Assembly: GCA_041686025.1 (NCBI GenBank)
Contig: JAWLEP010000017.1
Coordinates: 48,359-61,637, forward strand
Direction of reading: 5' to 3'
From: Candidatus Fermentibacteraceae bacterium
GTDB lineage: Bacteria; Fermentibacterota; Fermentibacteria; Fermentibacterales; JCC-6
DNA length: 13,279 nucleotides
Part shown: positions 1 to 13,279 of the stretch, piece after piece
Position numbering within the stretch: the first letter of the stretch is position 1
Layout of the letters: every line of letters begins with the position of its first letter
The notes under the pieces: model-generated
Databases searched by the model: none
What the model was told of the DNA's origin: nothing
What the model saw: only the letters and a program-made list of their open reading frames with translations
Made by a program: the position numbers and the translations under genes

Positions 1-41
1 GCAGCGACAGCACGCATCTGGCGGCGGAGGCAGGCCGATGA
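1..41 (+). CDS. 3' end of upstream dcw gene (partial; probably FtsI/PBP3 from gene order)
   Basis: The frame starting at 3 is open (SDSTHLAAEAGR) to TGA 39-41, which overlaps the murE ATG (ATGA) like most other junctions in this operon. The identity is inferred only from canonical dcw order. Confidence 0.45.
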   Translation, partial: SDSTHLAAEAGR

Positions 42-1483
42 GGCTGGCTCGGGTGCTGGAGGGAACGGGGGCGAAGGTGCCGCCGGGCCTGGCTGCCACC
101 GAGGTGACCCACATAACCAACGACTCCCGGGAGGTCGGGGAGGGGTCTCTCTTCGTAGCCGTCAGGGGCTTTCGGACCGACGGTCATCTGTTCATCCGGC
201 GGGCACTGGAGGCGGGCGCCTGCGCCTGCGTGGCGGAGCGGCGGGGCGAGGAGGGCCCCCGTGTCATCCTCAACCCCGCAGGCGACAACAGGCGGCTTCT
301 GGCCAGGGCGGCCTCCAACCTCTACCGCAGGCCATGGGAGAAGATGACCATGGTGGGCATAACGGGCACCAACGGCAAGACCTCCACCGCCATGATGCTG
401 GCGGCGATCCTGGAGGGGACCGGGGTCCGGGCGGGGGTGCTGGGAACCATCGGATACAGGATCGGGGAACGGACCCTTCCAGCTCCGGTGACCACTCCCG
501 AGTCCCATGTGCTGGCCCGTCTTCTCCGCGAGATGGTCGACTGCGGCTGCGGGGCCTGCGTGATGGAGGTCTCCAGCCACGCTCTGGCCCTCTCGCGGGT
601 GGACATGGTCCGGCTGGACGTGGCGGTGTTCACCAACATCTCGCAGGACCATCTGGACTTCCACGCGGACATGGAGGAGTACCTGCGCACCAAGCTGCGG
701 ATATTCGACCTCCTCAAGCCGGATGGAAGCGCCGTGGTGGGTACCTACGCCCCCGGGGCACCCGATGTGGAGGGCGCGGCGACCTTCGGGGACTCCCCCG
801 GCGACGACTACCGGATATCGGACATGGAGGTGGGCCTCGGCAGCATCTCCTACACGCTCTCCCACGGAGGCCGGAGCGTGGAGGTAAGGGTCCCGGTGAG
901 CGGCAGCGTGAACGTCTACAACAGCGCCGGCGCCCTGGCGGCCGCCCACAGGCTGGGCCTGGACCTGGCGGATGCCGCCGCCGGGCTGGAGGGCTTCGGC
1001 GGGGTACCGGGAAGGCTGGAGGCGGTGGACGAGGGGCAGGACTTCCTGGTGGCCGTGGACTACGCCCATACCCCCGACGCCCTGGAGAAGGTTCTGCAGC
1101 AGGCGGGGGAGATGAGCAGGGGCCGGGTGATAGCCGTCTTCGGAGCCGGGGGTGACCGGGACCGCCGCAAGAGGCCCAGGATGGGGGCCATCGCCGACAG
1201 GCTGGCGGACGTTCTGGTGGTCACCAGCGACAACCCCCGCACCGAGGAGCCGGGGGTCATCATCCGGGAGATCCTGGAGGGTGTGGACAGAGAGAGCGGG
1301 CTCCACGTGGAGCCAGACCGCAGGGCCGCCATACGGCTGGCGGTGAGCCTGGCCCGGGCGGGCGACGTGGTGGTGATCGCGGGCAAGGGTCACGAGGACT
1401 ATCAGATACTGGGCACCGAGAGGGTCCACTTCGACGACCGCGAGGAAGCCAGGCGGGCCATAGCGGGGGGGCGGAATGGCTGA
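38..1483 (+). CDS. murE: UDP-N-acetylmuramoyl-L-alanyl-D-glutamate--meso-diaminopimelate ligase
   Basis: Motifs: DSR..LFVA..G...DGH at the N-terminus, P-loop GITGTNGKTST, TTP, MEVSSHAL, FTNISQDHLDFH, VPGRLE, VDYAHTPDAL, FGAGGDRDRRKRPRMG, TSDNPRTE (DNPR indicates meso-DAP specificity) and AGKGHEDYQ. GGAGG Shine-Dalgarno at 26-30. Confidence 0.97.
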   Translation: MRLARVLEGTGAKVPPGLAATEVTHITNDSREVGEGSLFVAVRGFRTDGHLFIRRALEAGACACVAERRGEEGPRVILNPAGDNRRLLARAASNLYRRPWEKMTMVGITGTNGKTSTAMMLAAILEGTGVRAGVLGTIGYRIGERTLPAPVTTPESHVLARLLREMVDCGCGACVMEVSSHALALSRVDMVRLDVAVFTNISQDHLDFHADMEEYLRTKLRIFDLLKPDGSAVVGTYAPGAPDVEGAATFGDSPGDDYRISDMEVGLGSISYTLSHGGRSVEVRVPVSGSVNVYNSAGALAAAHRLGLDLADAAAGLEGFGGVPGRLEAVDEGQDFLVAVDYAHTPDALEKVLQQAGEMSRGRVIAVFGAGGDRDRRKRPRMGAIADRLADVLVVTSDNPRTEEPGVIIREILEGVDRESGLHVEPDRRAAIRLAVSLARAGDVVVIAGKGHEDYQILGTERVHFDDREEARRAIAGGRNG

Positions 1484-2819
1484 GATTCCCCTCGGGGCCC
1501 TGGCCGGGCACGTGGGCGGCAGCTACCTGGGCCCGGAGGGCCTCGCCGCGGACAGGGCCGTCATCGACTCCCGGGAGGCCGGCAGCGGGTCGCTGTTCTT
1601 CGCCCTGGCCGGCGAGAGAACCGACGGGCACCGATACGTCGATGACGTACTGGACGCCGGGGGCTCGGTAGTGGTGAGCCGCGACCCGGGCCGGGGCCCG
1701 GCGATACTGGTGGAGGACGTGGAGGCGGCGCTTCTGAAGGCTGGGGGATGGGCCCGGGACAGGATATCGGTGCCGGTGGTCGGCCTTTCGGGCAGCTCGG
1801 GGAAGACCACCACCAGGAGGCTGCTGGAGCTGGCGCTGTCCACCCGGTTCAGTGTGGCGGCCACGGAGGGCAACCGCAACAACCAGCTGGGCCTCCCCCT
1901 GACGCTGCTGAACGTCTCCGGCCGGCCGGAGGTGGTGGTGCTGGAGCTGGGAATGAACCACGCCGGAGAGCTTCGACAGCTCTGCCGGGTGGCCCGTCCC
2001 ACCGACTCGGTGATAACCAACATCGGACTGGCCCATGTGGAGTACCTGGGCTCCCGGGAGGGTGTGGCCAGGGCCAAGGCGGAGCTGCTGGAGGGGACCG
2101 CCCCCGGCGGCTTCTGCGTGATACCCCGGGGCGAGGAGATACTGGACAGGGCTGCGGAGGCCGCGGGCCTGGAGGCGGTGAGGGTGGGCCCCGGCGGGGA
2201 CCGGTGGCTGGAGGAGTGTCCGGAGGGTACGTGCATCCAGCCCGGAGGGCACCCTGTGAGGCTGGCCATCCCGGGACGGCACAACCTGGACAACACCCTG
2301 GTGGCCGTTACCGCGGCGGAGATGATGGGGGTACCCCCGGAAACGGCCCTGGAGGCCATCGGCGGCTACCGGGGAATGGCCGGCAGGTCGGCCCTGCTGC
2401 AGGCGGGACCCTTCCGGGTCATGGACGAGAGCTACAACTCCAACCCCGACTCGGCGGAGGCCTGCCTGAGGGCCCTGGCGGATATGCCCGGAGGCCGGGG
2501 CGTGGCCATCCTGGGCGACATGCTGGAGCTGGGGGAGAGGGCCCGCGAGCTCCATCGCCGGGTGCTGGCGTTCGCCGACGGCCTGGGTCTGCGCAGGATA
2601 GTCCTGGTTGGCGGTCTGTTCTCCTCCCTGGCCGGGGAGGCGCGGGTGACCGATACCGTGGCGGCCCGGGACTGGAGGCACGCGGTGGAGCTGGCCGTGG
2701 ACGCCCTGGAGCCGGGAGGGACCGTTCTGGTGAAGGCCAGTCGCAGCCTGCGGCTGGAGCGGGCGGTGGACCTGATCAGGGAGAGGCTCGCCGGGCCCGC
2801 GGAAGGGGAGGGCCCATGA
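1476..2819 (+). CDS. murF: UDP-N-acetylmuramoyl-tripeptide--D-alanyl-D-alanine ligase
   Basis: Motifs: IDSR..LFFAL.GERTDGH, GLSGSSGKTTT, GNRNNQLGLPLTLL, LELGMNHAGEL, ITNIGLAHVE, DESYNSNPDS, LGDMLELG, VLVKASR. Overlaps the murE stop by 8 nt. Confidence 0.96.
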   Translation: MAEIPLGALAGHVGGSYLGPEGLAADRAVIDSREAGSGSLFFALAGERTDGHRYVDDVLDAGGSVVVSRDPGRGPAILVEDVEAALLKAGGWARDRISVPVVGLSGSSGKTTTRRLLELALSTRFSVAATEGNRNNQLGLPLTLLNVSGRPEVVVLELGMNHAGELRQLCRVARPTDSVITNIGLAHVEYLGSREGVARAKAELLEGTAPGGFCVIPRGEEILDRAAEAAGLEAVRVGPGGDRWLEECPEGTCIQPGGHPVRLAIPGRHNLDNTLVAVTAAEMMGVPPETALEAIGGYRGMAGRSALLQAGPFRVMDESYNSNPDSAEACLRALADMPGGRGVAILGDMLELGERARELHRRVLAFADGLGLRRIVLVGGLFSSLAGEARVTDTVAARDWRHAVELAVDALEPGGTVLVKASRSLRLERAVDLIRERLAGPAEGEGP

Positions 2820-4156
2820 GCTACTGGCTGGACGGCTCCGGAAAGACCGTGGGCGTGCTGGGGCTGGGAAGGAGCGGCCGCGCCGCCGCCGCCCTCCTGA
2901 GCCGGCGCGGCTTTGCGGTGGTGGGCATAGACGATTCCCCCGACTGCCCCCCCTGCCCCGACTGCCGGCGCCACGTGCTGGGCGACACCAAAGCCCTGGA
3001 CCTCGAGGAGCTGGACGGCCTGGTGCTGAGCCCGGGGGTGCCTCCGGCCGCGCAGCTGCCCTCACGGGCCAGGGAGCTGGGAATACCGGTTACCGGGGAG
3101 GTGGAGCTGGCCAGCCTGTTCACATCGGCCACCGTGGCCGCGGTCACCGGTTCCAACGGCAAGACCACCACGGTGGAGTGGCTGGGCCACCTCCTGCGGA
3201 AGGCGGGCCTGAACGCCTGCGTGGCGGGAAACATGGGCTACCCGTTCTCCCGGGCCGTCCTGGAGAGGCCGGATGCCGGGGTCTACGTCCTGGAGGTCAG
3301 CAGCTACCAGCTGGAGACCATACGGACCTTCCGGCCGAAGGTGGCGGCAGTGCTGAACCTCACCCCCGACCACCTCAGCCGCCACGGGGACATGGACGGC
3401 TACCGCGGCGCCAAGGCCAGGATATTCATGAACCAGAGCCCCGAGGACTTCCTGGTGCTCAACGCCGACGACCCGCAGCTGGTGAGCCTCATAGGCCTCA
3501 CCGAGGGAATGGAGATGTACTTCAGCCTCCGGCGGCCGGTGGAAACCGGGGCCTTCGTGCGGGAGGGAAGCCTGCAGCTGGCCTGGGCCGGCGGGGTCAG
3601 CCCCCTGCTGCCGGTGGAGGAGCTCTCCCTGCCCGGAGCCCACAACACCGCCAACGCCCTGGCGGTAGCCTCAATTGCCAGGGCCCTGGGAGTCTCCGGC
3701 CAGCGCATGCTGGAGGGTCTGCGCACCTTCCCCGGAGTGCCGCACCGGCTGGAGGAGGTCAGGAGGCTGGGGGGCGTGAGGTACGTCAACGACTCCAAGT
3801 CCACCAACATCGACTCCCTCCGGGTCGCCCTGGAGGCGGAGCCCGGCCCCCTGGTCCTGATAGCAGGCGGCAGGCCCAAGGAGGGCGACTACGGCGGGCT
3901 CCGGGAAGCCGTCCGCTCCCGGGCCAGGGCAGTGCTGACCATAGGCGAGGCCGCGGGGATGCTGGCCGAGGCCTGGAGTGACGGGATCACCGTGGAACGG
4001 CTTCCGGACCTGGATGCCGCCGTGGGCCGCGCCCGGAGCCTGGCCCGAAGCGGGGACACCGTCCTCCTCTCTCCGGGCTGCGCCAGCTTCGACCAGTACG
4101 AGAACTTCGAGGAGCGGGGAGACCACTTCCGCCGCCTGGTGGAGGCCCTGTCATGA
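2816..4156 (+). CDS. murD: UDP-N-acetylmuramoyl-L-alanine--D-glutamate ligase (446 aa)
   Basis: The true start is ATG 2816 (ATGA overlap with the murF stop, GGAGGG upstream), inside the listed 802-aa ORF. Motifs: GLGRSG, LSPGVP, VTGSNGKTTT, GNMG, LEVSSYQLE, LNLTPDHL.RHG, HRLE, NDSKSTN, LLSPGCASFDQYENFEERG. Confidence 0.97.
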   Translation: MSYWLDGSGKTVGVLGLGRSGRAAAALLSRRGFAVVGIDDSPDCPPCPDCRRHVLGDTKALDLEELDGLVLSPGVPPAAQLPSRARELGIPVTGEVELASLFTSATVAAVTGSNGKTTTVEWLGHLLRKAGLNACVAGNMGYPFSRAVLERPDAGVYVLEVSSYQLETIRTFRPKVAAVLNLTPDHLSRHGDMDGYRGAKARIFMNQSPEDFLVLNADDPQLVSLIGLTEGMEMYFSLRRPVETGAFVREGSLQLAWAGGVSPLLPVEELSLPGAHNTANALAVASIARALGVSGQRMLEGLRTFPGVPHRLEEVRRLGGVRYVNDSKSTNIDSLRVALEAEPGPLVLIAGGRPKEGDYGGLREAVRSRARAVLTIGEAAGMLAEAWSDGITVERLPDLDAAVGRARSLARSGDTVLLSPGCASFDQYENFEERGDHFRRLVEALS

Positions 4157-5262
4157 GCGCCGCGCGGAAGGCCCCCACCGGCATGCTGCTCACCACCACG
4201 GCCGCCCTGCTGATACTGGGGGTAATGGCGGTGTACACCGCCAGCTCCTTCGCCTCCATGCAGGACTACGCCGACGGCGGCAGCTACCACTACCTGGTGC
4301 GGTACCTGGTGAGGCTGGCCGCCGGCCTCCTCTGCGCCGCCGCCGCCTACGCCATGCCCAGGAGGGCCTGGATACTGGCCGCGCCCGTGCTCTACGGCGC
4401 CAGCCTGCTGATGCTGGTGATGACGGTGATCCCGGACTTCCCCCTGGCACCGGCGGTGAAGGGCTCCAGCAGGTGGATCTTCCTGGGCCCGGTGAGCCTG
4501 ATGCCCGCCGACCTGGTCCGCTTCTCGCTGATCATGTTCGTGGCTTCGCTGGTTACCGGCAGCAGGCTCCGGCCCCGCAGCGGCCGCGGCTTCCTGGTGC
4601 TCTGCTCCCTGGGGCTCTTTCCCGCCGGCCTGATGCTGCTTCAGCCCGACTTCGCGGGTGCGGCATACCTTACGGTCGTCATGATAGTCGTTGCCTATCT
4701 GGCGGAAGCAAGGCTGGGCCACATCGCCCTTCTGCTGGCCCTTCTGGTGGCCCTGGGCGCTGCCGCCGTGCTCTCATCGGAGTACCGCCGGGAGCGTCTT
4801 ATGGGATTCCGGAACCCCGAGCAGAACGTCGAGGGGACCAACTGGCAGTCGAACCAGTCCATCATTGCCCTGGGCAGCGGCGGCCTGCGCGGCCGGGGGC
4901 TGGGCCGCGGCAGGCAGCAGATGGGCTACCTGCCGGAGCCCTTCTCGGACTTCGTCCTGGCCGTGGTGGGTGAGGAGCTGGGCTTCATGGGGACCTCCCT
5001 GATAACCGGCCTGCTCCTGCTGCTGTGCCTCTCCGGCTGGCGGATAGCGCAGGCGGCGGACAGCGCCTTCGGCCAGATCGCCGCGGGGGGCCTCACCGCC
5101 TCCATCGCCATGGGTGCCCTGATCCACGCAGGCGTGGTGACCAGGCTGCTGCCCCCCACGGGTACCCCCCTGCCCCTGATCTCCTGGGGGGGCACGAACG
5201 TGATAGTCACGCTGGCCTCCATCGGCTTCCTGGCCCGAATCTCCAGGGAGGTGGGCAGATGA
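4153..5262 (+). CDS. ftsW: SEDS-family peptidoglycan glycosyltransferase, cell division protein FtsW
   Basis: Many hydrophobic segments. Motifs: VYTASS, GSSRWI, LLQPDFAG, WQSNQSIIALGSGG..GRGLG.G.Q, YLPEPFSDF..AVVGEELGF, G.PLPLISWGG. Lies between murD and murG. Confidence 0.93.
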   Translation: MSAARKAPTGMLLTTTAALLILGVMAVYTASSFASMQDYADGGSYHYLVRYLVRLAAGLLCAAAAYAMPRRAWILAAPVLYGASLLMLVMTVIPDFPLAPAVKGSSRWIFLGPVSLMPADLVRFSLIMFVASLVTGSRLRPRSGRGFLVLCSLGLFPAGLMLLQPDFAGAAYLTVVMIVVAYLAEARLGHIALLLALLVALGAAAVLSSEYRRERLMGFRNPEQNVEGTNWQSNQSIIALGSGGLRGRGLGRGRQQMGYLPEPFSDFVLAVVGEELGFMGTSLITGLLLLLCLSGWRIAQAADSAFGQIAAGGLTASIAMGALIHAGVVTRLLPPTGTPLPLISWGGTNVIVTLASIGFLARISREVGR

Positions 5263-6332
5263 TCAGGGCTTTCTTCGCTGCGGGGGGCACCGGGGGCCAC
5301 ATCAGCCCGGCCCTGGCCGTGGCCTCCGCCATGGAGGAGCTGGGGGACGTGGACGCCCGCTTCATCGCCACCTGCCGGACGGTGGACAGGCGCATGTACG
5401 CGCCCCTGGGAGAGCGCGTCTACTACATAGACTCCCCCAGGATCGACAGGGGCGGCCCCCGAAGCCTCCTTCTTCCCTTCAGGGCCCTCTCCACCCTCCG
5501 CCTGGTGCGGGGGATACTCCGCGCCGGGGCTGCAGACGTCCTTCTGGGCACCGGAGGATACTCCTCCTTCTACGCCATGGTGGCGGCCAGGACGCTGGGC
5601 ATTCCCGCGGTGCTTCACGAGTCGAACACCGTTGCCGGAAGGTCCAACAGGCTGGCCTCCCGCTTTGCCGACCTCACCCTTACGGGCTTTGGCGCCGGAA
5701 GGGCCGGACTGTCCGGTACGGTGGAGCGGGCGGGCAATCCGGTGCGTCCCTCCCTGTCCAGGATGAACCCGCTGGAGGCCAGGAGAACGCTGGGGATACC
5801 CATGGACCGGCCCGCGGTGCTGTTCCTGGGCGGGAGCCAGGGCGCCAGGGCCCTCAACGACCTGGCCCTGCGGGCGCCGGAGGAGGTCTTCGTGATCCTG
5901 CAGTGCGGTGAGACCGACCTGCTGCGGGTACGGAAGGAAGCTGGAGAGAGGCGGGGCATCAGGGTGGTGGCCTTCGCCGACGACCCCTCGGCCCTCTACT
6001 CGGCCGCGGACCTGGCAGTGGCCAGGGCCGGGGCCATGACCACCGCCGAGCTCTGCTGGTTCCGTCTGCCGTCTGTTCTGGTCCCCTACCCCTATGCCGC
6101 CGGCGACCACCAGCGGGGAAACGCCGGGGAGCTGGAGAGCGCCGGAGGGGCCGTGATGCTGGACCAGGACGTCGCCGGGAAGTCCCTCTGGCCCCTGGTG
6201 GAGTCCCTTCTGGAAGAGCCGGAGAGACGCAGGGGCATGAGCACGGCCCTGGCGGGGCTGATGCCGGAGAACCCCGCCTACGCCATAGCCCGCCGCCTGC
6301 TGGAGACCGCCGGGGAAGGCGGTGGGCTGTGA
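5259..6332 (+). CDS. murG: Undecaprenyl-PP-MurNAc-pentapeptide N-acetylglucosamine transferase (357 aa)
   Basis: Start ATG 5259 (ATGA overlap with ftsW). Motifs: AGGTGGHISPA, GTGGYSS, HESNTVAGRSNR, GNPVR, LGGSQGA, RAGAMTTAEL, LVPYPYA..DHQ..NA. Confidence 0.96.
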   Translation: MIRAFFAAGGTGGHISPALAVASAMEELGDVDARFIATCRTVDRRMYAPLGERVYYIDSPRIDRGGPRSLLLPFRALSTLRLVRGILRAGAADVLLGTGGYSSFYAMVAARTLGIPAVLHESNTVAGRSNRLASRFADLTLTGFGAGRAGLSGTVERAGNPVRPSLSRMNPLEARRTLGIPMDRPAVLFLGGSQGARALNDLALRAPEEVFVILQCGETDLLRVRKEAGERRGIRVVAFADDPSALYSAADLAVARAGAMTTAELCWFRLPSVLVPYPYAAGDHQRGNAGELESAGGAVMLDQDVAGKSLWPLVESLLEEPERRRGMSTALAGLMPENPAYAIARRLLETAGEGGGL

Positions 6333-7648
6333 GCACCGTTCACGTCATGGGGGCCGGAGGAGCCGGCATGAGCGGCCTGGCCCGCTGGTACGCCCATTCC
6401 GGCTGGACCGTCACCGGATGCGACCTCAGCCCCGGTCCCGTGGTCCGGATGCTGCGGGAGGAGGGCATACCGGTGGCCATGGGCCACAGCCCCGAGCACC
6501 TGGAGGGAGCCGACAGGCTGGTCTATAGCGCGGCCGTTCCCCCGGACTGCCCGGAGCTGCTGGCGGCGACGCGCATGGGCATCCCCGCCCTCCGCAGGAG
6601 CGAGGCCCTGGCGGAGCTCACCGAGGGCTCTCCGCTGGCGGCGGTTGCCGGCGCCCACGGCAAGACCACCACCGCGTCCATGGCCGGCTGGGCCCTGTCG
6701 GCCTGCGGGCTGGACCCCACCGTGATGGTGGGGGGGCAGGTCCCCGCCTGGCGCGGCAACTACCGCCCGGGCTCGGGGCCGGTGGTGGTGGAGGCAGACG
6801 AGTACGACAGGGCGTTCCTCCGGCTCCGGCCCACCTGGGCTCTGGTCACCGGATTCGCCGCCGAGCACCTGGAGTGCTACGGGTCGCTGGAGCGCCTGGA
6901 GGCGGCCTTCGAGTTCTTCCTGGAGCTGACCCCTCCCGGCGGGTCGGTGATCGTGCCCCGCCGGCTGAGGGGAATGGCCAGGTGGGCCGAGAGGCTGGGC
7001 CGCAGGGTGGTGACCACCGGCCCGGAGGGCGAGGTCTTCGCCGAGAGCCTGGGGACCGATGGCTGGGGGGAGCGGTACTCCGTGGCCGGCGTGCGCGGGA
7101 GGCTTCCCCAGCCCGGGCTGCACAACCTGGAGAACGTGGCCTCGGCTGCGGCCCTGTGCAGGGAGATGGGGGCCGACGTCTCGCAGGTGGTGCAGGCCCT
7201 GGAGGACTACCCGGGAGTGAGCCGCAGGCTGGAGCGGATAGGAAAGCTGCACGGAGCGGTGGCGGTATCGGACTACGCGCACCACCCCGACGAGATCGGC
7301 GCCGCCCTGGCCGCCCTGAGGAGGGTCTCCGGCGGCGGGCTGGGCGTGGTGTTCCAGCCGCACCTCTACAGCCGCACACGTCTGCTGCACAGGGAGATGG
7401 GCGCCGCCCTGGCCGCCGCCGACTGGACCGTGGTCCTCCCCGTCTACCCGGCGCGGGAGGCCCCGATTCCCGGGGTGACCTCCCAGCTGGTGCACACCGC
7501 CTGCGTCCGCGCCGGCGGCACCTCCACCCGCTGCGCCACCTCGGAGCTGGGCCGCTGCCTTTCCGGGCTGGAGGCGGGAACCGTGGTCTTCATGGGAGCG
7601 GGGACCGTGGACCGGGCCGCCAGGCGGCTGGTGGAGGAGGAGTCATGA
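6329..7648 (+). CDS. murC: UDP-N-acetylmuramate--L-alanine ligase
   Basis: GTG start (GTGA overlap). Motifs: HVMGAGGAGMSGLA, VYSAAV, RSEALAEL, AVAGAHGKTTTASM, VEADEYD, DYAHHPDEI, VFQPHLYSRT, VYPARE, MGAG. Confidence 0.95.
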   Translation: MSTVHVMGAGGAGMSGLARWYAHSGWTVTGCDLSPGPVVRMLREEGIPVAMGHSPEHLEGADRLVYSAAVPPDCPELLAATRMGIPALRRSEALAELTEGSPLAAVAGAHGKTTTASMAGWALSACGLDPTVMVGGQVPAWRGNYRPGSGPVVVEADEYDRAFLRLRPTWALVTGFAAEHLECYGSLERLEAAFEFFLELTPPGGSVIVPRRLRGMARWAERLGRRVVTTGPEGEVFAESLGTDGWGERYSVAGVRGRLPQPGLHNLENVASAAALCREMGADVSQVVQALEDYPGVSRRLERIGKLHGAVAVSDYAHHPDEIGAALAALRRVSGGGLGVVFQPHLYSRTRLLHREMGAALAAADWTVVLPVYPAREAPIPGVTSQLVHTACVRAGGTSTRCATSELGRCLSGLEAGTVVFMGAGTVDRAARRLVEEES

Positions 7649-8331
7649 GAAAGGCGATGTGGATCCTTCTGGCGCTGTCCATGGCCGCCACTGTGGGGGC
7701 CCTGGGCTACAGGATGGCCGAGAGGGACGACTGGTTCGACCTGGGGGAGGCCCGGGTCCGGGGCATCAGGCCGGTGGACTCCGCCATGGTGGCCCGCACG
7801 CTGCGGCCCTACTTCGGCACCCCCCTGGGAAGCATCGACCTGCCCTCCATACGCCGCGACCTGGAGGAGCTGTCGCTGGTTGACTCCGCAGAGGTGGGCC
7901 GAAGCTGGCCGCAGTCCATAGCGGTAGAGGTGTCCCTGGCGCGGCCGGTGGCCGTCCTGGCGGACACCGGCGGACGCACCGCCGTGGACGCCGGAGGGAA
8001 CCCCCTTCCGGCGACCTTCGTCGCCGACAGCCTTCCCCTGATCGCCCTGGAGGCGGGATACGCCCGGGACGACCTGCTGCGCCTGCTGGACTACGTGAGC
8101 TCCGCAGGGACCCCGGCCGGCGTGGAGGGAATCGAGCTGGGCCCCAGGGGGGTGAGCTTCCTCACCGGCGAGTGCCGCGTGCTGCTGGGCTCGGCCCGGC
8201 TGCCGCTTCGCTGGGGGCTGTTCAGGAGCATACCGCGGGGTGCTCTCCTCACCGGAAGATGGTGCACGGTGGACATGCGTTACAGGGGCCAGGCCGTTGT
8301 GAGAAGCCGCAGGGAGGAACGATCGGGATGA
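7645..8331 (+). CDS. ftsQ: Cell division protein FtsQ/DivIB (228 aa, divergent)
   Basis: Start ATG 7645 (ATGA overlap with murC, GGAGG upstream). Single N-terminal TM helix, POTRA-like segment (..VDSAEVGRSWPQSIAVEV), C-terminal VDMRY resembling the IDLRY motif, and position directly before ftsA. Confidence 0.85.
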   Translation: MRKAMWILLALSMAATVGALGYRMAERDDWFDLGEARVRGIRPVDSAMVARTLRPYFGTPLGSIDLPSIRRDLEELSLVDSAEVGRSWPQSIAVEVSLARPVAVLADTGGRTAVDAGGNPLPATFVADSLPLIALEAGYARDDLLRLLDYVSSAGTPAGVEGIELGPRGVSFLTGECRVLLGSARLPLRWGLFRSIPRGALLTGRWCTVDMRYRGQAVVRSRREERSG

Positions 8332-9569
8332 CGGACAGCATGCTGGCGGGCCTGGACATCGGGACCTCCAAGGTAACCTGCGTAGTGGCGGAGCTGGACG
8401 ACGACGGCGAGCTGGTGATCAGCTCGGTGGGCGAGGCCGCCATGCGGGACGGAGCCAGACACGGGCTGGTGGTGAACCTCCAGCAGGTCTCGGAGACCGT
8501 GGAGAGGGCCATCGAGCAGGCCGAGCTGGTGCTGCCCTGGAGCATAGACAGCGTCTACATCTCCATCAGCGGGGAGCACGTGCGGGGATTCGCCGGCCGC
8601 GGCTCGGTAAGCGTGGGCAGCCGGAACGAGGGAGGGCCCTCCGTGGTCTCCGACGAGGACGTCCAGCGCGCCGAGGAGGCGGCGCGGGCGGTGAGCCTGC
8701 CCCCCGGCTGCATCGTGCTGGACACGGTCCGGAGGGACTACGCAGCCGACAGCTTCGAGAGGCTGCGGCAGCCCCCGCTGGGCCTGAAAGCCGAGCAGAT
8801 CAGCGCCAGGATCTACACCGTGATCGCCGACAGGGTCGCGGTGGACAACCTGGTGAGCTGCGTGGAGGAGGCGGGCAGGGAGGTGGCCGGCATGATCCCG
8901 GCCGCGGTGGCCAGCGGCAGGGCCGTGCTCACCGACGACGAGATGGAGGTGGGAGTGGCCGCCGTGGACATGGGCGCCGGCACCACCGACCTGGCCGTGT
9001 TCCGCGACGGCAGCCTGGCCCATCTGGCGGTGATACCCATGGGTGGGGACCTGATCACGGGCGACCTCCAGGCCCTGAGGATATCCCGGGAGAACGCCGA
9101 GGAGATCAAGAGGGAGTGGGCTGCGGCCGCCTCTTCGAAGGTGGACCCCAACAAGACGATGAAGGTATCGCGGCTGGGAGGCCGGGGCACCTTCACCGTA
9201 ACCCATTCCGTTGTGTCGCAGATAGTCATCGACAGGTACGTAGAGATCATGGAGGCTGTGGCCGACGAGCTGGCCAGGGCGGGGTTCCGTCCCGAGGACC
9301 TTCCGGCGGGAATGGTCCTCACCGGCGGCTGCTCCAGGATGCTGGGAGCCCGGGAGACGGCGGGGGACGTGACCGGGCTGGGCGTCGAGCTGGGCAGGCC
9401 GGACAGCTTCCGGATCGCCACCGACCTGGTGGCCTCACCGGAGTACTCAACCGCCAGCGGGCTGCTTCCGCTGGCGATGTCCGGCGATGGGGAGAACGGA
9501 ATATGCGGAAAGCGAATCGTGGGGGAGATAGTTGAGAAGCTCAGGGACCTTTTCGGAAAGGTCCGGTGA
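8328..9569 (+). CDS. ftsA: Cell division protein FtsA (413 aa)
   Basis: Start ATG 8328 (ATGA overlap with ftsQ, GGAGG upstream). Actin-fold motifs GLDIGTSKV, VDMGAGTTD, GGDLITGDL, AEEIK, VLTGG. C-terminal amphipathic helix IVGEIVEKLRDLF. Confidence 0.95.
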   Translation: MTDSMLAGLDIGTSKVTCVVAELDDDGELVISSVGEAAMRDGARHGLVVNLQQVSETVERAIEQAELVLPWSIDSVYISISGEHVRGFAGRGSVSVGSRNEGGPSVVSDEDVQRAEEAARAVSLPPGCIVLDTVRRDYAADSFERLRQPPLGLKAEQISARIYTVIADRVAVDNLVSCVEEAGREVAGMIPAAVASGRAVLTDDEMEVGVAAVDMGAGTTDLAVFRDGSLAHLAVIPMGGDLITGDLQALRISRENAEEIKREWAAAASSKVDPNKTMKVSRLGGRGTFTVTHSVVSQIVIDRYVEIMEAVADELARAGFRPEDLPAGMVLTGGCSRMLGARETAGDVTGLGVELGRPDSFRIATDLVASPEYSTASGLLPLAMSGDGENGICGKRIVGEIVEKLRDLFGKVR

Positions 9570-9570
9570 C

Positions 9571-9580
9571 AGGAGGAGGA
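9571..9580 (+). promoter_or_regulatory. Strong Shine-Dalgarno for ftsZ
   Basis: AGGAGGAGGA fills the 12-nt ftsA-ftsZ gap immediately before ATG 9582. Confidence 0.85.
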
Positions 9581-9581
9581 T

Positions 9582-10736
9582 ATGGCTGTAATAGAGCTAA
9601 GAGAGATCGGAGAGGACGCCGAAGGCAGGGCGGTCCTCAAGGTAATCGGAGTGGGCGGCTGCGGCTGCAACGCCATCAACAGGATGATAAGCTCCAACCT
9701 CTCGGGTGTGGAGTACGTTGCCATCAACACCGACGTGCAGGCCCTGGAGAAGTGCCTGGCCGACCAGCGGGTCCAGATCGGGCCCCGGCTTACCGGCGGT
9801 CTGGGCGCAGGGGGCGTCCTCGAGGTTGGCGAGCAGGCCGCGGAGGAGAGCCTCAAGGAGATCGAGGAGGCCCTGCAGGGGGCCCACATGGTCTTCGTGG
9901 CCGCCGGCATGGGCGGGGGGACCGGCACCGGCGCCGCCCCCATAGTCGCCCGGGTGGCCCGGGACGTGGGCGCCATAACCGTAGGCGTTATCACCAGGCC
10001 CTTCGAGTTCGAGGGGGCTCCCAGGGCGGCAAAGGCCGAGGACGGGGTGGAGATGCTCCGCCGGGAGGTGGACACCCTGATCGTGATACCCAACGACAGG
10101 CTCAAGGCCCTGGCCGATCCCGACGCCAGGATGACCGAGGTGTTCGACATGGCCAACATGGTCCTGATGAACGCCGTGGAGGGCATCTCCAGCCTGATCT
10201 CCTCCCCCGGCGACATCAACCTGGACTTCCAGGACGTGAAGAACGTCATCACCCAGGGCGGCGGGGCCATGATGGGCAGCGGCCGGGCAAAGGGCGAGAG
10301 CCGGGCCTCGGAGGCCGCCAGGGAGGCCATCTCCAGCCCGCTGCTGGACAGCGTCTCCATCGAGGGCGCCCGCGCCCTGCTGGTGAGCATACAGTCCTCC
10401 GGAGACATCAGGTTCAACGAGTTCACCGAGGCCATGGAGACCATCACGGGAGTGGTGGGCAGCCAGGCCAACGTGTTCATAGGAACCAGCGTAAGCGACA
10501 GCGTCGACGAGGAGATAAAGGTGACGGTGATCGCCACCGGGTTCGGCGAGACCGGCATCACGGAGCCGGAGGAGATCCAGCTGGGCAGCGACGAGGAGGA
10601 GGACGAGTATCCCTTCGCCCGCGGACAGTCCGGCAGGGAGCACGAGAAGGTCCCCGGCAGGGCGCAGTCGCGCAATCCCCGGATCGATCCTCAGCGCACC
10701 AAGCTGCCCACATTCCTGAGGAGGACTATCGACTAG
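9582..10736 (+). CDS. ftsZ: Cell division GTPase FtsZ
   Basis: Motifs: KVIGVGG, NTD.QAL, GLGAGG, signature AGMGGGTGTGAAP, PF.FEG, T7 loop INLDFQDV, VTVIATGF, acidic linker and C-terminal core peptide LPTFLRR. Confidence 0.98.
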   Translation: MAVIELREIGEDAEGRAVLKVIGVGGCGCNAINRMISSNLSGVEYVAINTDVQALEKCLADQRVQIGPRLTGGLGAGGVLEVGEQAAEESLKEIEEALQGAHMVFVAAGMGGGTGTGAAPIVARVARDVGAITVGVITRPFEFEGAPRAAKAEDGVEMLRREVDTLIVIPNDRLKALADPDARMTEVFDMANMVLMNAVEGISSLISSPGDINLDFQDVKNVITQGGGAMMGSGRAKGESRASEAAREAISSPLLDSVSIEGARALLVSIQSSGDIRFNEFTEAMETITGVVGSQANVFIGTSVSDSVDEEIKVTVIATGFGETGITEPEEIQLGSDEEEDEYPFARGQSGREHEKVPGRAQSRNPRIDPQRTKLPTFLRRTID

Positions 10737-10843: not shown

Positions 10844-12520
10844 ATGAGTCGAGGCTCGGCGCAGAAGAAGTACGACGCACGCAGGCGTGCCATCCTGGAC
10901 AGCGAGCGCTGCCTGCAGCAGCGCAACGAGGAGGGCGTCTTCGAGACCGTGCTGGCCTCTCCCAAGGTCTACAGCCAGGGCATGGCCTCCATCGAGTACC
11001 AGAGCATACTGGGCCACCTGTCGCGCTGGCCGGATACCAGGTGCGAGCGGGCCTTCTTCCCCGAGAAGGACGAGCTCAACTGGCGCAAGCGGTCGGAGAG
11101 GTCCTTCGTGACCCTCGACTCGGGAAGCCCCATCGAGCGGTCGGATCTGATCGTCTTCCACATAGGCCACGAGAGCGACTACGAGTACGTGCTGCAGATG
11201 ATGCAGCTCTCGGGGCTGGAGATATGGGGCGAGAGGCGGCAGCGACGCTGGCCGCTCCTGATAGGCACGGGGATCACGGTGACAGCCAACCCCCTGCCCC
11301 TGGCCCCCTTCCTGGACGCCTTCATAGTGGGCGAGACCGAGCCCGCGCTGGGGCCGGTGCTGGACACCATCAAGAGCCTGGGTGCCCAGGGAGCGTCCAA
11401 GCGCAAGATACTCCGCTGGATAGCCCAGCTTCCCGGCATCTACGTGCCTTCCCACCACGGCTACCGTGACGTGAAGACCACCATCATGCGCCAGTGGGCG
11501 GGGGCGGACACCATCGGCACGCGCACCTGCGTCTTCGCCCCGCAGAGCGACCTGGGCCCGGTGATGATGCTGGAGATCGCCCGGGGCTGCCCGTTCAACT
11601 GCCGTTTCTGCATGGGGGGCTACATCTACCTGCCCTACCGGGAGAAGAGGCTGGAGGACCTGCAGGAGGCCATGGACGACCTGGAGGGCCCCTCCACCAT
11701 AGGCCTGCTGGGCTGTGCTCCGGAGGACCACGCCATGTACGAGGACATAGTGGACTACGCGCGCAGAAAGGGCCACTCGGTCATCACGGGCTCCCTTCGT
11801 CCCGAGGACCTCGGCCAGCTGAGGAACCTCCCCCAGGACTACTCCTCGGATACGCTGGTGATCGCCCCCGAGACCGGTTCCGACAGCCTGCGCCGCGTAA
11901 TAGGCAAGAACCTGGACAACGCCACCGTACTGCGGCGGATCGAGTCGGCGGGCGAAAAGACCGAACGCATAAGGCTCTACTTCATGATCGGGCTGCCCTT
12001 CGAGACAGCCGAGGACCGCAGGGCCATACCCGAGCTGGTGGCCGCCGCCAGGGAGATCACCGACCTTCCCATCAGCGTCTACATCACACCCTTCATCCCC
12101 CGGCCCTGGACCGCATTCCAGTGGACGGCCATGACCAGTCCCCGCAAGCTGCGGATAGCCAGCTCCGAGATCGAGCCGCTGCTGGATGACATCGAGGGGG
12201 TGAAGACCGAGTACTTCAGCCCCCGCGACGCTCACATCATCGGCCTTCTGGCCAGGGGCGACCACAGGGTTTCCAAGGCCCTGGAGGTCCGTCTGACGGG
12301 AGTGGGCTGGAACACGGCCTTCGGCGAGGCGGGGATCAACATCAACTGGATCTTCCACGACCTCAAGCCCGGCAGCCCGTTCCAGTGGGACTTCCTGAAC
12401 ATGGGCTTCGGCTACACCAGGCTGGCGCGGGAGCTGCAGCTGGCGGTGTCGGCCAACCAGACCCGCATAAAGAAGCGGGAGGCGGAGTCCTCCGAAGAGC
12501 AGGAGGAGGACGCCGAATAG
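10844..12520 (+). CDS. Radical SAM protein, B12-binding-domain type, TIGR03960-like family, function unknown
   Basis: CxxxCxxC in LEIARGCPFNCRFC. Family-like motifs: Y..GM, CERAF.P, NP.PLAPF.D.F..GE.E, SLR.E, APETGS..LR..I.K, LYFMIGLP.ET.ED, PFIP.P.T.FQW, LARGD. Acidic C-terminal tail. The family assignment is from remembered motifs, not a search. Confidence 0.85.
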   Translation: MSRGSAQKKYDARRRAILDSERCLQQRNEEGVFETVLASPKVYSQGMASIEYQSILGHLSRWPDTRCERAFFPEKDELNWRKRSERSFVTLDSGSPIERSDLIVFHIGHESDYEYVLQMMQLSGLEIWGERRQRRWPLLIGTGITVTANPLPLAPFLDAFIVGETEPALGPVLDTIKSLGAQGASKRKILRWIAQLPGIYVPSHHGYRDVKTTIMRQWAGADTIGTRTCVFAPQSDLGPVMMLEIARGCPFNCRFCMGGYIYLPYREKRLEDLQEAMDDLEGPSTIGLLGCAPEDHAMYEDIVDYARRKGHSVITGSLRPEDLGQLRNLPQDYSSDTLVIAPETGSDSLRRVIGKNLDNATVLRRIESAGEKTERIRLYFMIGLPFETAEDRRAIPELVAAAREITDLPISVYITPFIPRPWTAFQWTAMTSPRKLRIASSEIEPLLDDIEGVKTEYFSPRDAHIIGLLARGDHRVSKALEVRLTGVGWNTAFGEAGININWIFHDLKPGSPFQWDFLNMGFGYTRLARELQLAVSANQTRIKKREAESSEEQEEDAE

Positions 12521-12569: not shown

Positions 12570-12761
12570 CTAGTGAGCCTTCCGGACCTTCCCCGCCCTT
12601 ATGCAGCTGGTGCAGACCCTGAGCCTCTTGACCTTGCCGTCCACCAGGGCCCGTACCCTCTGCAGGTTGGGATTCCAGGTATGCTTGGTCTTCTTCTCGG
12701 AATGGCTGACCTTGTTCCCGATTGAAGGGGACTTTCCGCAGATGTCGCAACGCCTTGCCAT
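12570..12761 (-). CDS. rpmB: 50S ribosomal protein L28 (63 aa, Zn-ribbon CxxC...CxxC form)
   Basis: [37 protein letters not shown]...[14 protein letters not shown] carries the GN.VSHS...T...W.PNLQ L28 signature. The true start is ATG at 12761 with AGGGGG upstream, not the 99-aa ORF start. Confidence 0.97.
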
Positions 12762-12801
12762 GCTGTTCCCCCTGTCCGCTGCCAATTGAACTCGAGCCGG
12801 G

Positions 12802-12830
12802 AAGATAACCCATGCAACCTCCCGCTGCAA
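12802..12830 (-). promoter_or_regulatory. Candidate sigma70 promoter for rpmB
   Basis: On the minus strand: -35 TTGCAG (12830-12825), 17-nt spacer, -10 TATCTT (12807-12802), about 40 nt upstream of the start codon. Confidence 0.6.
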
Positions 12831-12884
12831 GCCTGAGACGCGCGGGAACTCCCTCCCGCCCATTGGCATTGTGCAAGTGAGCGG

Positions 12885-12914
12885 TTGACAGGCGAGAGCC
12901 CCGCCGCTTAGGAT
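12885..12914 (+). promoter_or_regulatory. Sigma70 promoter for ssrA
   Basis: Consensus -35 TTGACA (12885-12890), 18-nt spacer, -10 TAGGAT (12909-12914). It ends 14 nt before the mature tmRNA 5' end, implying a short leader. Confidence 0.8.
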
Positions 12915-12928
12915 TCACATCCGACCGT

Positions 12929-13278
12929 GGGGGCGATTTGGTCTCGACGGGTTCGGAAGTGGCCGCATGGTCGCATGCCGAGGTCCGCGGCCTCGTAAAA
13001 CACGCGGAACAACACAACTGCCGCATAAAACGGCAAACTGCCGCTCCTAAGGGAGCGGCCGTCCGCCCCGGAGGTGCCTTCCGGCCGGGGGTCGGGCGCC
13101 ATAAGGGAGGCTGGCCGGAAAGCCCAGTCGTCAGGTGTACCGGCGAGATTCAAGGGCGACTACTCCCGGAGAGGCGGGTCTGGGCCGACCCGGGGGGAAA
13201 CGCAACGCAGGCCTAAGCATGTAGTGACTGTGCCGTCCCCGTCCCCGGACGCGGGTTCGATTCCCGCCGCCTCCACCA
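12929..13278 (+). ncRNA. ssrA: tmRNA (one-piece, 350 nt)
   Basis: Acceptor stem GGGGGCG (12929-12935) / CGCCUCC (13268-13274) with a G3.U alanine identity pair, discriminator A and encoded CCA (13276-13278). D-loop GGUCUCGAC. T-arm GCGGG-UUCGAUU-CCCGC (13251-13267). Helix-2 pairings GCAUGC/GCAUGU and GCAUGGUCGC/GUGACUGUGC. Pseudoknot 1 at 12979-13008. H5-like hairpin at 13040-13059. Confidence 0.97.
13020..13028 (+). other. Predicted tmRNA tag reading frame GCC GCA UAA, giving the tag (A)AA
   Basis: The resume codon is placed 11 nt after pseudoknot 1, preceded by CAACU, matching the E. coli geometry. An in-frame UAA follows at the third codon. Confidence 0.65.
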
Positions 13279-13279
13279 C

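Follow-up and report, generated by a model that had tools for sequence, protein, structure and literature searches.

The locus described here is best read against standard tmRNAs, the alanine tails made by RqcH and RqcP, and tmRNAs in which the mRNA-like part has been reduced. Release factors end the tag of a tmRNA, which is synthesised on 70S ribosomes; RQC tails, in contrast, grow without a template on split 50S subunits and vary in length. The closest described relatives of the locus are tmRNAs with a two-amino-acid Ala-Ala tag, 25 of which were reported in 2025 by Nawrocki, Petrov and Williams as especially common in Fermentibacterota (PMC11915505). The two-alanine tag of this phylum is already known from that report, and the novelty implied for it by a first-pass annotation of the present DNA does not stand. 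Where the report takes up these tags, it does so in two sentences on the 25 sequences, without a conservation test, protease survey or mechanism. Its entry Fermentibacter__daniensis.1, of the 2-aa class, shares both phylum and tag with our tmRNA, and the tmRNA of Ca. Fermentibacter daniensis (L051), which reads GCC GCC TAA, is 72% identical to it. The call of a two-alanine tag made there is independent of ours, and the sequence database that goes with that report may already include the tmRNA described here. Added here are the apparent phylum-wide fixation of the tag, a survey of proteases and partners, the avoidance of Ala-Ala ends by native proteins, the retention of helix 5 and a candidate hairpin. 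A literature search, with most subscription journals outside its scope, found no experimental study of these tmRNAs.

The window, that is, the whole stretch of 13,279 nt that was analysed, carries a tmRNA gene near its end, with the following features:

12885-12914, plus strand: sigma-70-type promoter-like site, TTGACA-18 nt-TAGGAT (consensus match only)
12929-13278, plus strand: complete standard one-piece tmRNA gene (ssrA), from RF00023 and an RNA-library contig over 12936-13274
12929-12935, plus strand: 5' strand of the acceptor stem, GGGGGCG, in which G12931 is G3 of the G3.U70 alanine identity pair
12979-13008, plus strand: pseudoknot 1, from the sequence; stem 1 paired in 100% of cells in 38 sequences
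13009-13019, plus strand: single-stranded spacer of 11 nt ending CAACT; A13016 corresponds to E. coli A86 (position -4) and C13015 to U85
13020-13028, plus strand: tag frame GCC GCA TAA (Ala-Ala-stop), from the sequence and the phylum comparison
13019-13035, plus strand: predicted 5-bp hairpin UGCCG/CGGCA over the resume codon, in which U13019-G13023 would pair with C13031-A13035 and the loop contains the stop codon
13040-13059, plus strand: helix 5, non-coding, its first base 20 nt past the resume G and its loop containing UAAG
13268-13278, plus strand: 3' strand of the acceptor stem, discriminator A and encoded CCA, from the sequence and RF00023

The covariance match to RF00023 spans 12929-13278 and the full length of the model (1-374) at 155.7 bits (cut-off 47), and identifies the sole full tmRNA of the source genome. 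Its tRNA-Ala-like domain has the G3.U70 pair (G12931.T13272), a T arm and a genome-encoded CCA, and the promoter-like site, found once against 0.1 expected in shuffles, sits 14 nt 5' of the tmRNA start. All of this agrees with the earlier description of a live gene, intact in tRNA-like domain and promoter, and not a pseudogene. A contig from an RNA library includes the gene but lacks its upstream flank, a weak hint that the gene is expressed; contig depths in the RNA runs were not taken as levels of expression. Pseudoknot 1 is built from the stems CGAGG 12979-83 / CCTCG 12991-95 and TCCGCG 12984-89 / CGCGGA 13003-08, and leads into a single-stranded stretch in which an A occupies position -4 of a GCN resume codon, the arrangement that marks a tmRNA. 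In E. coli this A (A86) is the main determinant of the frame and the distance from pseudoknot 1 is not critical (PMC2481249); SmpB stacks on the A at -4 and thereby places the resume codon (PMC8363625). The coordinates first given for pseudoknot, spacer and GCC GCA UAA all agree with the sequence, and the frames ADKTANCRS and ANCRS, offered there as the products of a single-base deletion and of later resumption, read exactly as given.

The contig stops one base past the CCA (13278-13279), and the tmRNA genes of several relatives likewise lie at contig ends, as would be the case if islands integrate at this gene. Upstream, the window holds a cell-wall and division cluster (2-10736) of murE, murF, probable murD, ftsW, probable murG, murC, probable ftsQ, ftsA and ftsZ, in which murD, murG and ftsQ were judged by eye; no mraY was found between murF and murD, and no ddl or murB ahead of ftsQ. 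Between this cluster and the tmRNA lie a gene for a B12-binding radical SAM-like protein (10844-12520, plus strand; its match to TIGR03960 is below the cut-off of that model) and rpmB, encoding L28 with a CxxC motif (12570-12761, minus strand), which is divergent from the tmRNA.

With a standard tmRNA the locus shares the full Rfam match, G3.U70, CCA, pseudoknot 1, the A at -4, the distance to helix 5 and the Ala-Ala end. It differs in that the tag has two codons instead of about ten, the stop lies about 12 nt before a non-coding helix 5, and no segment remains to which an SspB-type adaptor could attach. A more extreme reduction is known from the CDS-less tmRNAs of mitochondria, Mallomonadaceae plastids, phage DS6A and Nasuia (PMC11915505). 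Extreme reduction of the mRNA-like part is common to both, but the window tmRNA keeps two codons, the resume codon included, and a stop, all under selection, within its full 350-nt frame. Compared to RqcH/RqcP tailing in B. subtilis, the predicted product is the same, a short C-terminal run of alanines for ClpXP; here, however, the alanines are encoded in the RNA and fixed in length, and the two systems have no shared ancestry. We rejected an assignment of the window tmRNA to RqcH-type tailing, as its alanines are templated and RqcH is a separate gene. The tag most likely acts much as an RqcH alanine tail does, yet it is not RQC, and since the source genome encodes RqcH, a convergence on RQC-style tails is plausible. 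The case would be a natural minimal one, suggesting that trans-translation can run on two codons throughout a phylum, and it offers a test case for two ideas, that a bare Ala-Ala-Ala is enough of a degron in vivo and that the tags of tmRNA and RqcH present the same signal to proteases.

For the comparison across the phylum (70 genomes in the collection searched), loci were picked by RF00023 and not by their tag: 58 genomes have a match at E <= 1e-20 and a further one has an incomplete gene that includes the tag, which gives 60 readable loci from 59 genomes (one genome with two), 57 of them unique. The other 11 genomes, among them the sole member of family f2, are without a readable tmRNA. The resume site was taken as the first GC after pseudoknot 1 with A at -4, a rule that fixes these three bases alone. 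Codon 1 is then GCC in 60/60 loci (the GC being set by the rule), codon 2 is GCA in 37, GCG in 13, GCC in 8 and GCT in 2, with variation confined to the silent base but extending to all four letters, and the stop codon is TAA in every locus, a codon that ends only 107 of the 2222 predicted genes of the source genome. Position -5 is C or T in all 57 unique loci, and positions +10 to +13 vary freely among the 60. The alignment of sister genomes thus keeps GCC-GCN-TAA throughout while the downstream bases drift, and the resume codon and two-codon Ala-Ala tag proposed for the window are borne out by it. Judged from these sequences, a two-codon tag appears to be fixed in the phylum, and its frame shows the marks of coding-type selection, with a variable silent base and an invariant TAA. 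Because kin are not independent, we count this as one ancestral event retained and not as 60 events. Tags of 8-18 residues are present in six genomes from outside the phylum. One phylum genome (G074) has two different full tmRNAs on separate contigs (L185, L191), both with two-codon tags, which possibly reflects contamination of the bin.

The RNA downstream of the stop is conserved in another way. Helix 5 starts +18 to +20 after the resume G in 60/60 loci, compared to +14 to +21 in four ordinary control tmRNAs (in a fifth control a later stem was picked), and in the alignment of 38 of the 57 unique segments five of its eight pairs change on both sides. Helix 5 therefore is kept as a structure, in keeping with the part it plays at the mRNA entrance (PMC8363625). 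Its 5' strand begins GCY in 45 of the 57 unique loci and still reads Ala-Ala in 17 of them, and helix 5 is probably what remains of the Ala-Ala-stop end that an ordinary tag had before an early stop shortened it. A direct repeat, AACTGCCGC, at 13016-13024 (resume site) and 13036-13044 (start of helix 5) is also found in a genome of the same genus and is not kept across the phylum.

A small candidate hairpin may cover the resume codon, and could hinder resumption. Folding gives its pairs probabilities of 0.85-1.0, and a CGRY partner lies 1-4 nt past the stop in 60/60 loci, in 22 of which it is CGAC and leaves a C.A mismatch. In the alignment 84.7% of the cells pair, the g8 rows being misaligned there, and no pair shows a compensatory change among the 38 aligned sequences; no such covariation is possible, as the 5' strand is invariant. 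Even opposite the mismatch the C does not vary, which again points to selection on the codon and not on the base pair. These bases could also pair with a GUC after helix 5, but this was considered less likely, since that GUC opens the next stem in the Rfam alignment.

We consider it probable that the two-codon tmRNA adds Ala-Ala-Ala to stalled chains and that this end is read directly by ClpXP; tagging and degradation would proceed by analogy with better studied systems. As in E. coli, SmpB would read A13016 and put G13020 in the A site. The charged alanine would be added first, two tRNA-Ala would then decode GCC GCA, and RF1 or RF2 would release the chain at UAA, again following E. coli work. 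ClpX would grip the terminal Ala-Ala-COO- of the resulting Ala-Ala-Ala-COOH end, and the unfolded end of the truncated chain, presumably the usual state of such a nascent chain, would supply the length normally given by a ten-residue tag. Historically, an early stop may have arisen within an ordinary tag in the phylum ancestor, the downstream RNA and helix 5 then being retained as a structural spacer.

The partners that such a mechanism would need are at hand. SmpB was found in 60 of 61 sampled phylum genomes, and that of the source genome aligns over its full length, tail included, with solved SmpB. ClpX is present in 61/61 and adjoins clpP in the source genome, where ClpP too is intact; the ClpX loops GYVG, TRDVSGEG and RKH are unchanged in the 12/12 loci compared. 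Lon was found in 68 of 70 genomes, and RqcH homologues in 60 of 61, with DR and E..GR motifs, which drive tailing, that align with those of B. subtilis RqcH; in the source genome RqcH lies on another contig than the tmRNA. In the E. coli ClpX structure the three loops hold the residues that contact Ala-Ala-COO- (PMC7652416), and in B. subtilis RqcH backs up trans-translation (PMC11633108). SspB was found in 0/61 phylum genomes, but the absence carries little weight, since only 2/14 control genomes have it. The first-pass annotation, which had pointed to ClpX, Lon, SspB and RqcH as the genes to inspect, was right that the tag has no adaptor-binding segment, although this tells little, as most bacteria with ordinary tags lack SspB too. 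The source genome also encodes ArfB and two further release-factor genes, both release factors being present, as well as two other Clp ATPases and a Prc-type protease. An 87-aa S4-only protein is a candidate RqcP, and no NCBIfam model names it. None of the tRNAs of the source genome reads UAA; a selenocysteine tRNA was seen at G000:C36:8234-8330.

If Ala-Ala ends are a degron, native proteins might be expected to avoid them. Of 2222 proteins of the source genome, predicted with our own codon-model gene caller, none has an AAA end and two have an AA end, whereas AA occurs on average 27.6 times at positions -3 to -30; no other of 88 dipeptides is as depleted. Measured against the residue frequencies of the last two positions the deficit is modest (2 vs 8.1, P=0.012, fifth of 121 dipeptides). 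Ends in VA, LA, AV and AL are depleted too, and Prc, Lon or other proteases may therefore contribute. The two AA-ended proteins are a DUF433 helix-turn-helix protein and a DUF4236 protein. Controls drawn from about 0.4 Mb of each of three genomes, and hence underpowered, gave 6 AA ends vs 1.4 expected and 0 vs 2.6 in two ordinary-tag genomes, and 1 vs 3.8 in another member of the phylum; from this mixed outcome AA avoidance is not universal, yet it cannot be called special to the phylum. The excess in the ordinary-tag control G037 (L217-L236; 6/308 native proteins) possibly represents natural ClpXP substrates.

The length of the tail is a separate matter. With E. coli ClpXP, GFP-LAA, which has a tail of three residues, is not degraded, while GFP-YALAA is (PMC7652416). 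The tmRNA tag gives three accessible residues, where a ClpXP degron would call for about five or more beyond any folded domain, and the outcome would depend on the stalled chain. Given the resistance of GFP-LAA, a three-residue tag likely works only where the preceding chain is unfolded. Within this limit the Ala-Ala-Ala C-terminal degron first proposed from the window is supported as likely, with intact ClpX loops and native AA ends avoided.

The alternative that survives best, an unlikely one in our estimation, is that the two-codon frame rescues ribosomes while its AAA end is no meaningful degron, tagging being dispensable and truncated chains being cleared by Lon or other proteases. Ribosome rescue indeed persists in E. 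coli and H. pylori with engineered tmRNAs that have a stop directly behind the resume codon; the minimal-tag version gave a plating efficiency of 0.9 in E. coli and viable H. pylori, although that of H. pylori did not work in E. coli (PMC2862035). The resistance of GFP-LAA, the wide occurrence of Lon and the presence of ArfB and RqcH as back-up rescue point the same way. Pure release, however, needs no second alanine, and codon 2 encodes Ala in 60/60 loci with its silent base free to vary; moreover, AA ends are scarce among native proteins, and the residues with which ClpX reads a tag are intact.

Less probable still is a longer tag, produced by resumption at another codon (a second AACU-GCC, with its GCC at 13040, or GCA 13033) or by read-through of, or a shift at, the UAA. 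The second copy of AACTGCCGC at 13036-13044 offers such a site, the predicted hairpin could mask G13020, and ARAGORN proposes longer frames. However, the second site lies within helix 5 and is not conserved among relatives, and neither the -1 nor the +1 frame is conserved in length or ending among the phylum loci. Read-through peptides range from 6 to at least 50 residues and have no common end, with no AA among the ends listed. The spacing from stop to helix 5 differs by non-multiples of three among the 60 loci, and the tRNA set and release factors described above speak for termination at the UAA.

The sequence itself was compared over 12700-13279 with four sequencing runs, as assembled contigs and not raw reads. 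There were zero differences in a DNA contig of run X3 spanning 12700-13275 (X3 is possibly the source sample), in a contig of run X5 spanning 12942-13073, or in the RNA-library contig of run X15 spanning 12936-13274; a related X5 contig has 13025 A->G, which is silent, and one A fewer in the run that ends the stop codon, with TAA intact. Bases 13009-13050, where a sequence error had been considered from the outset, hence have matching contigs in other runs, though these are assemblies and not reads. That the gene is an assembly error or a decaying pseudogene of an ordinary ten-codon tmRNA, as its position at a contig end and a pseudogene call by ARAGORN at relaxed scores might suggest, has almost no probability left and is refuted by these identical contigs, one of them from an RNA library, and by the same tag in 60/60 loci of 13 genera, in a genome where this is the sole full tmRNA and SmpB is intact.

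Beyond the direct reading of Ala-Ala-Ala by ClpXP, a bolder view, which we hold as a tentative and rather doubtful one, is that the phylum has merged the tmRNA and RqcH routes on one adaptor-free alanine-tail signal. A tail of three residues would not reach far enough for ClpX to draw in a folded domain, and hence only truncated, unfolded chains would be destroyed and nearly complete, folded ones spared, and the hairpin might gate or frame the message.

Short-tag genes pose a problem for automated annotation. ARAGORN with default settings misses the window gene, and with relaxed scores calls a pseudogene with a spurious 14-residue tag, GTTQLPHKTANCRS. It detected 26 of 51 full-length short-tag genes and assigned the two-codon tag to none, from which it follows that automated annotation misses or mislabels such tmRNAs. 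Having missed genes or given spurious tags, it was rejected as a tag caller. Of the two checks by program suggested at first, ARAGORN was thus of no help with the tag, and the identity of the tmRNA was left to RF00023, whose full-length match at the score given above settles it.

A scan of 185,579 species genomes for the short-tag pattern gave 76 matches, 58 of them of Fermentibacterota type; since the pattern itself selects for the tag, these were kept out of the conservation count. Named among the 58 are Ca. Fermentibacteria, Fermentibacteraceae, Aegiribacteria, Sabulitectum, Fermentibacter (daniensis) and Hyd24-12, and the best named match is 80% identical to the window tmRNA over 357 nt. 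The same exact pattern, which would miss diverged genes, had 0 matches in viral contigs. Among the other 18 matches, 13 were scanned with Rfam and include two tmRNAs, and the remaining five are without tRNA-like ends.

One tmRNA unlike the Fermentibacterota type (L086; 106-447, minus strand; RF00023 151 bits) has GCA GCG TAA after CCAGAAAC and is the second tmRNA of a 1.6-Mb genome, the main tmRNA of which has an ordinary tag, ANNDFALAA. Its contig (region L169, G067:C2:2000-21500) also carries two tmRNA-like mini copies of about 112 nt with tRNA-like ends only, NrdD/NrdG-like genes and many proteins without a PHROG match, and may be a mobile element. In genome G068, a 0.9-Mb uncultured Pseudomonadota genome, the sole full tmRNA (L055; 98-455, minus strand) reads GCA GCG GCT TAA after pseudoknot 1, likely a three-codon Ala-Ala-Ala tag that was reduced independently. 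Taken together, the sequences of L086 and L055 suggest that tag reduction has arisen more than once.
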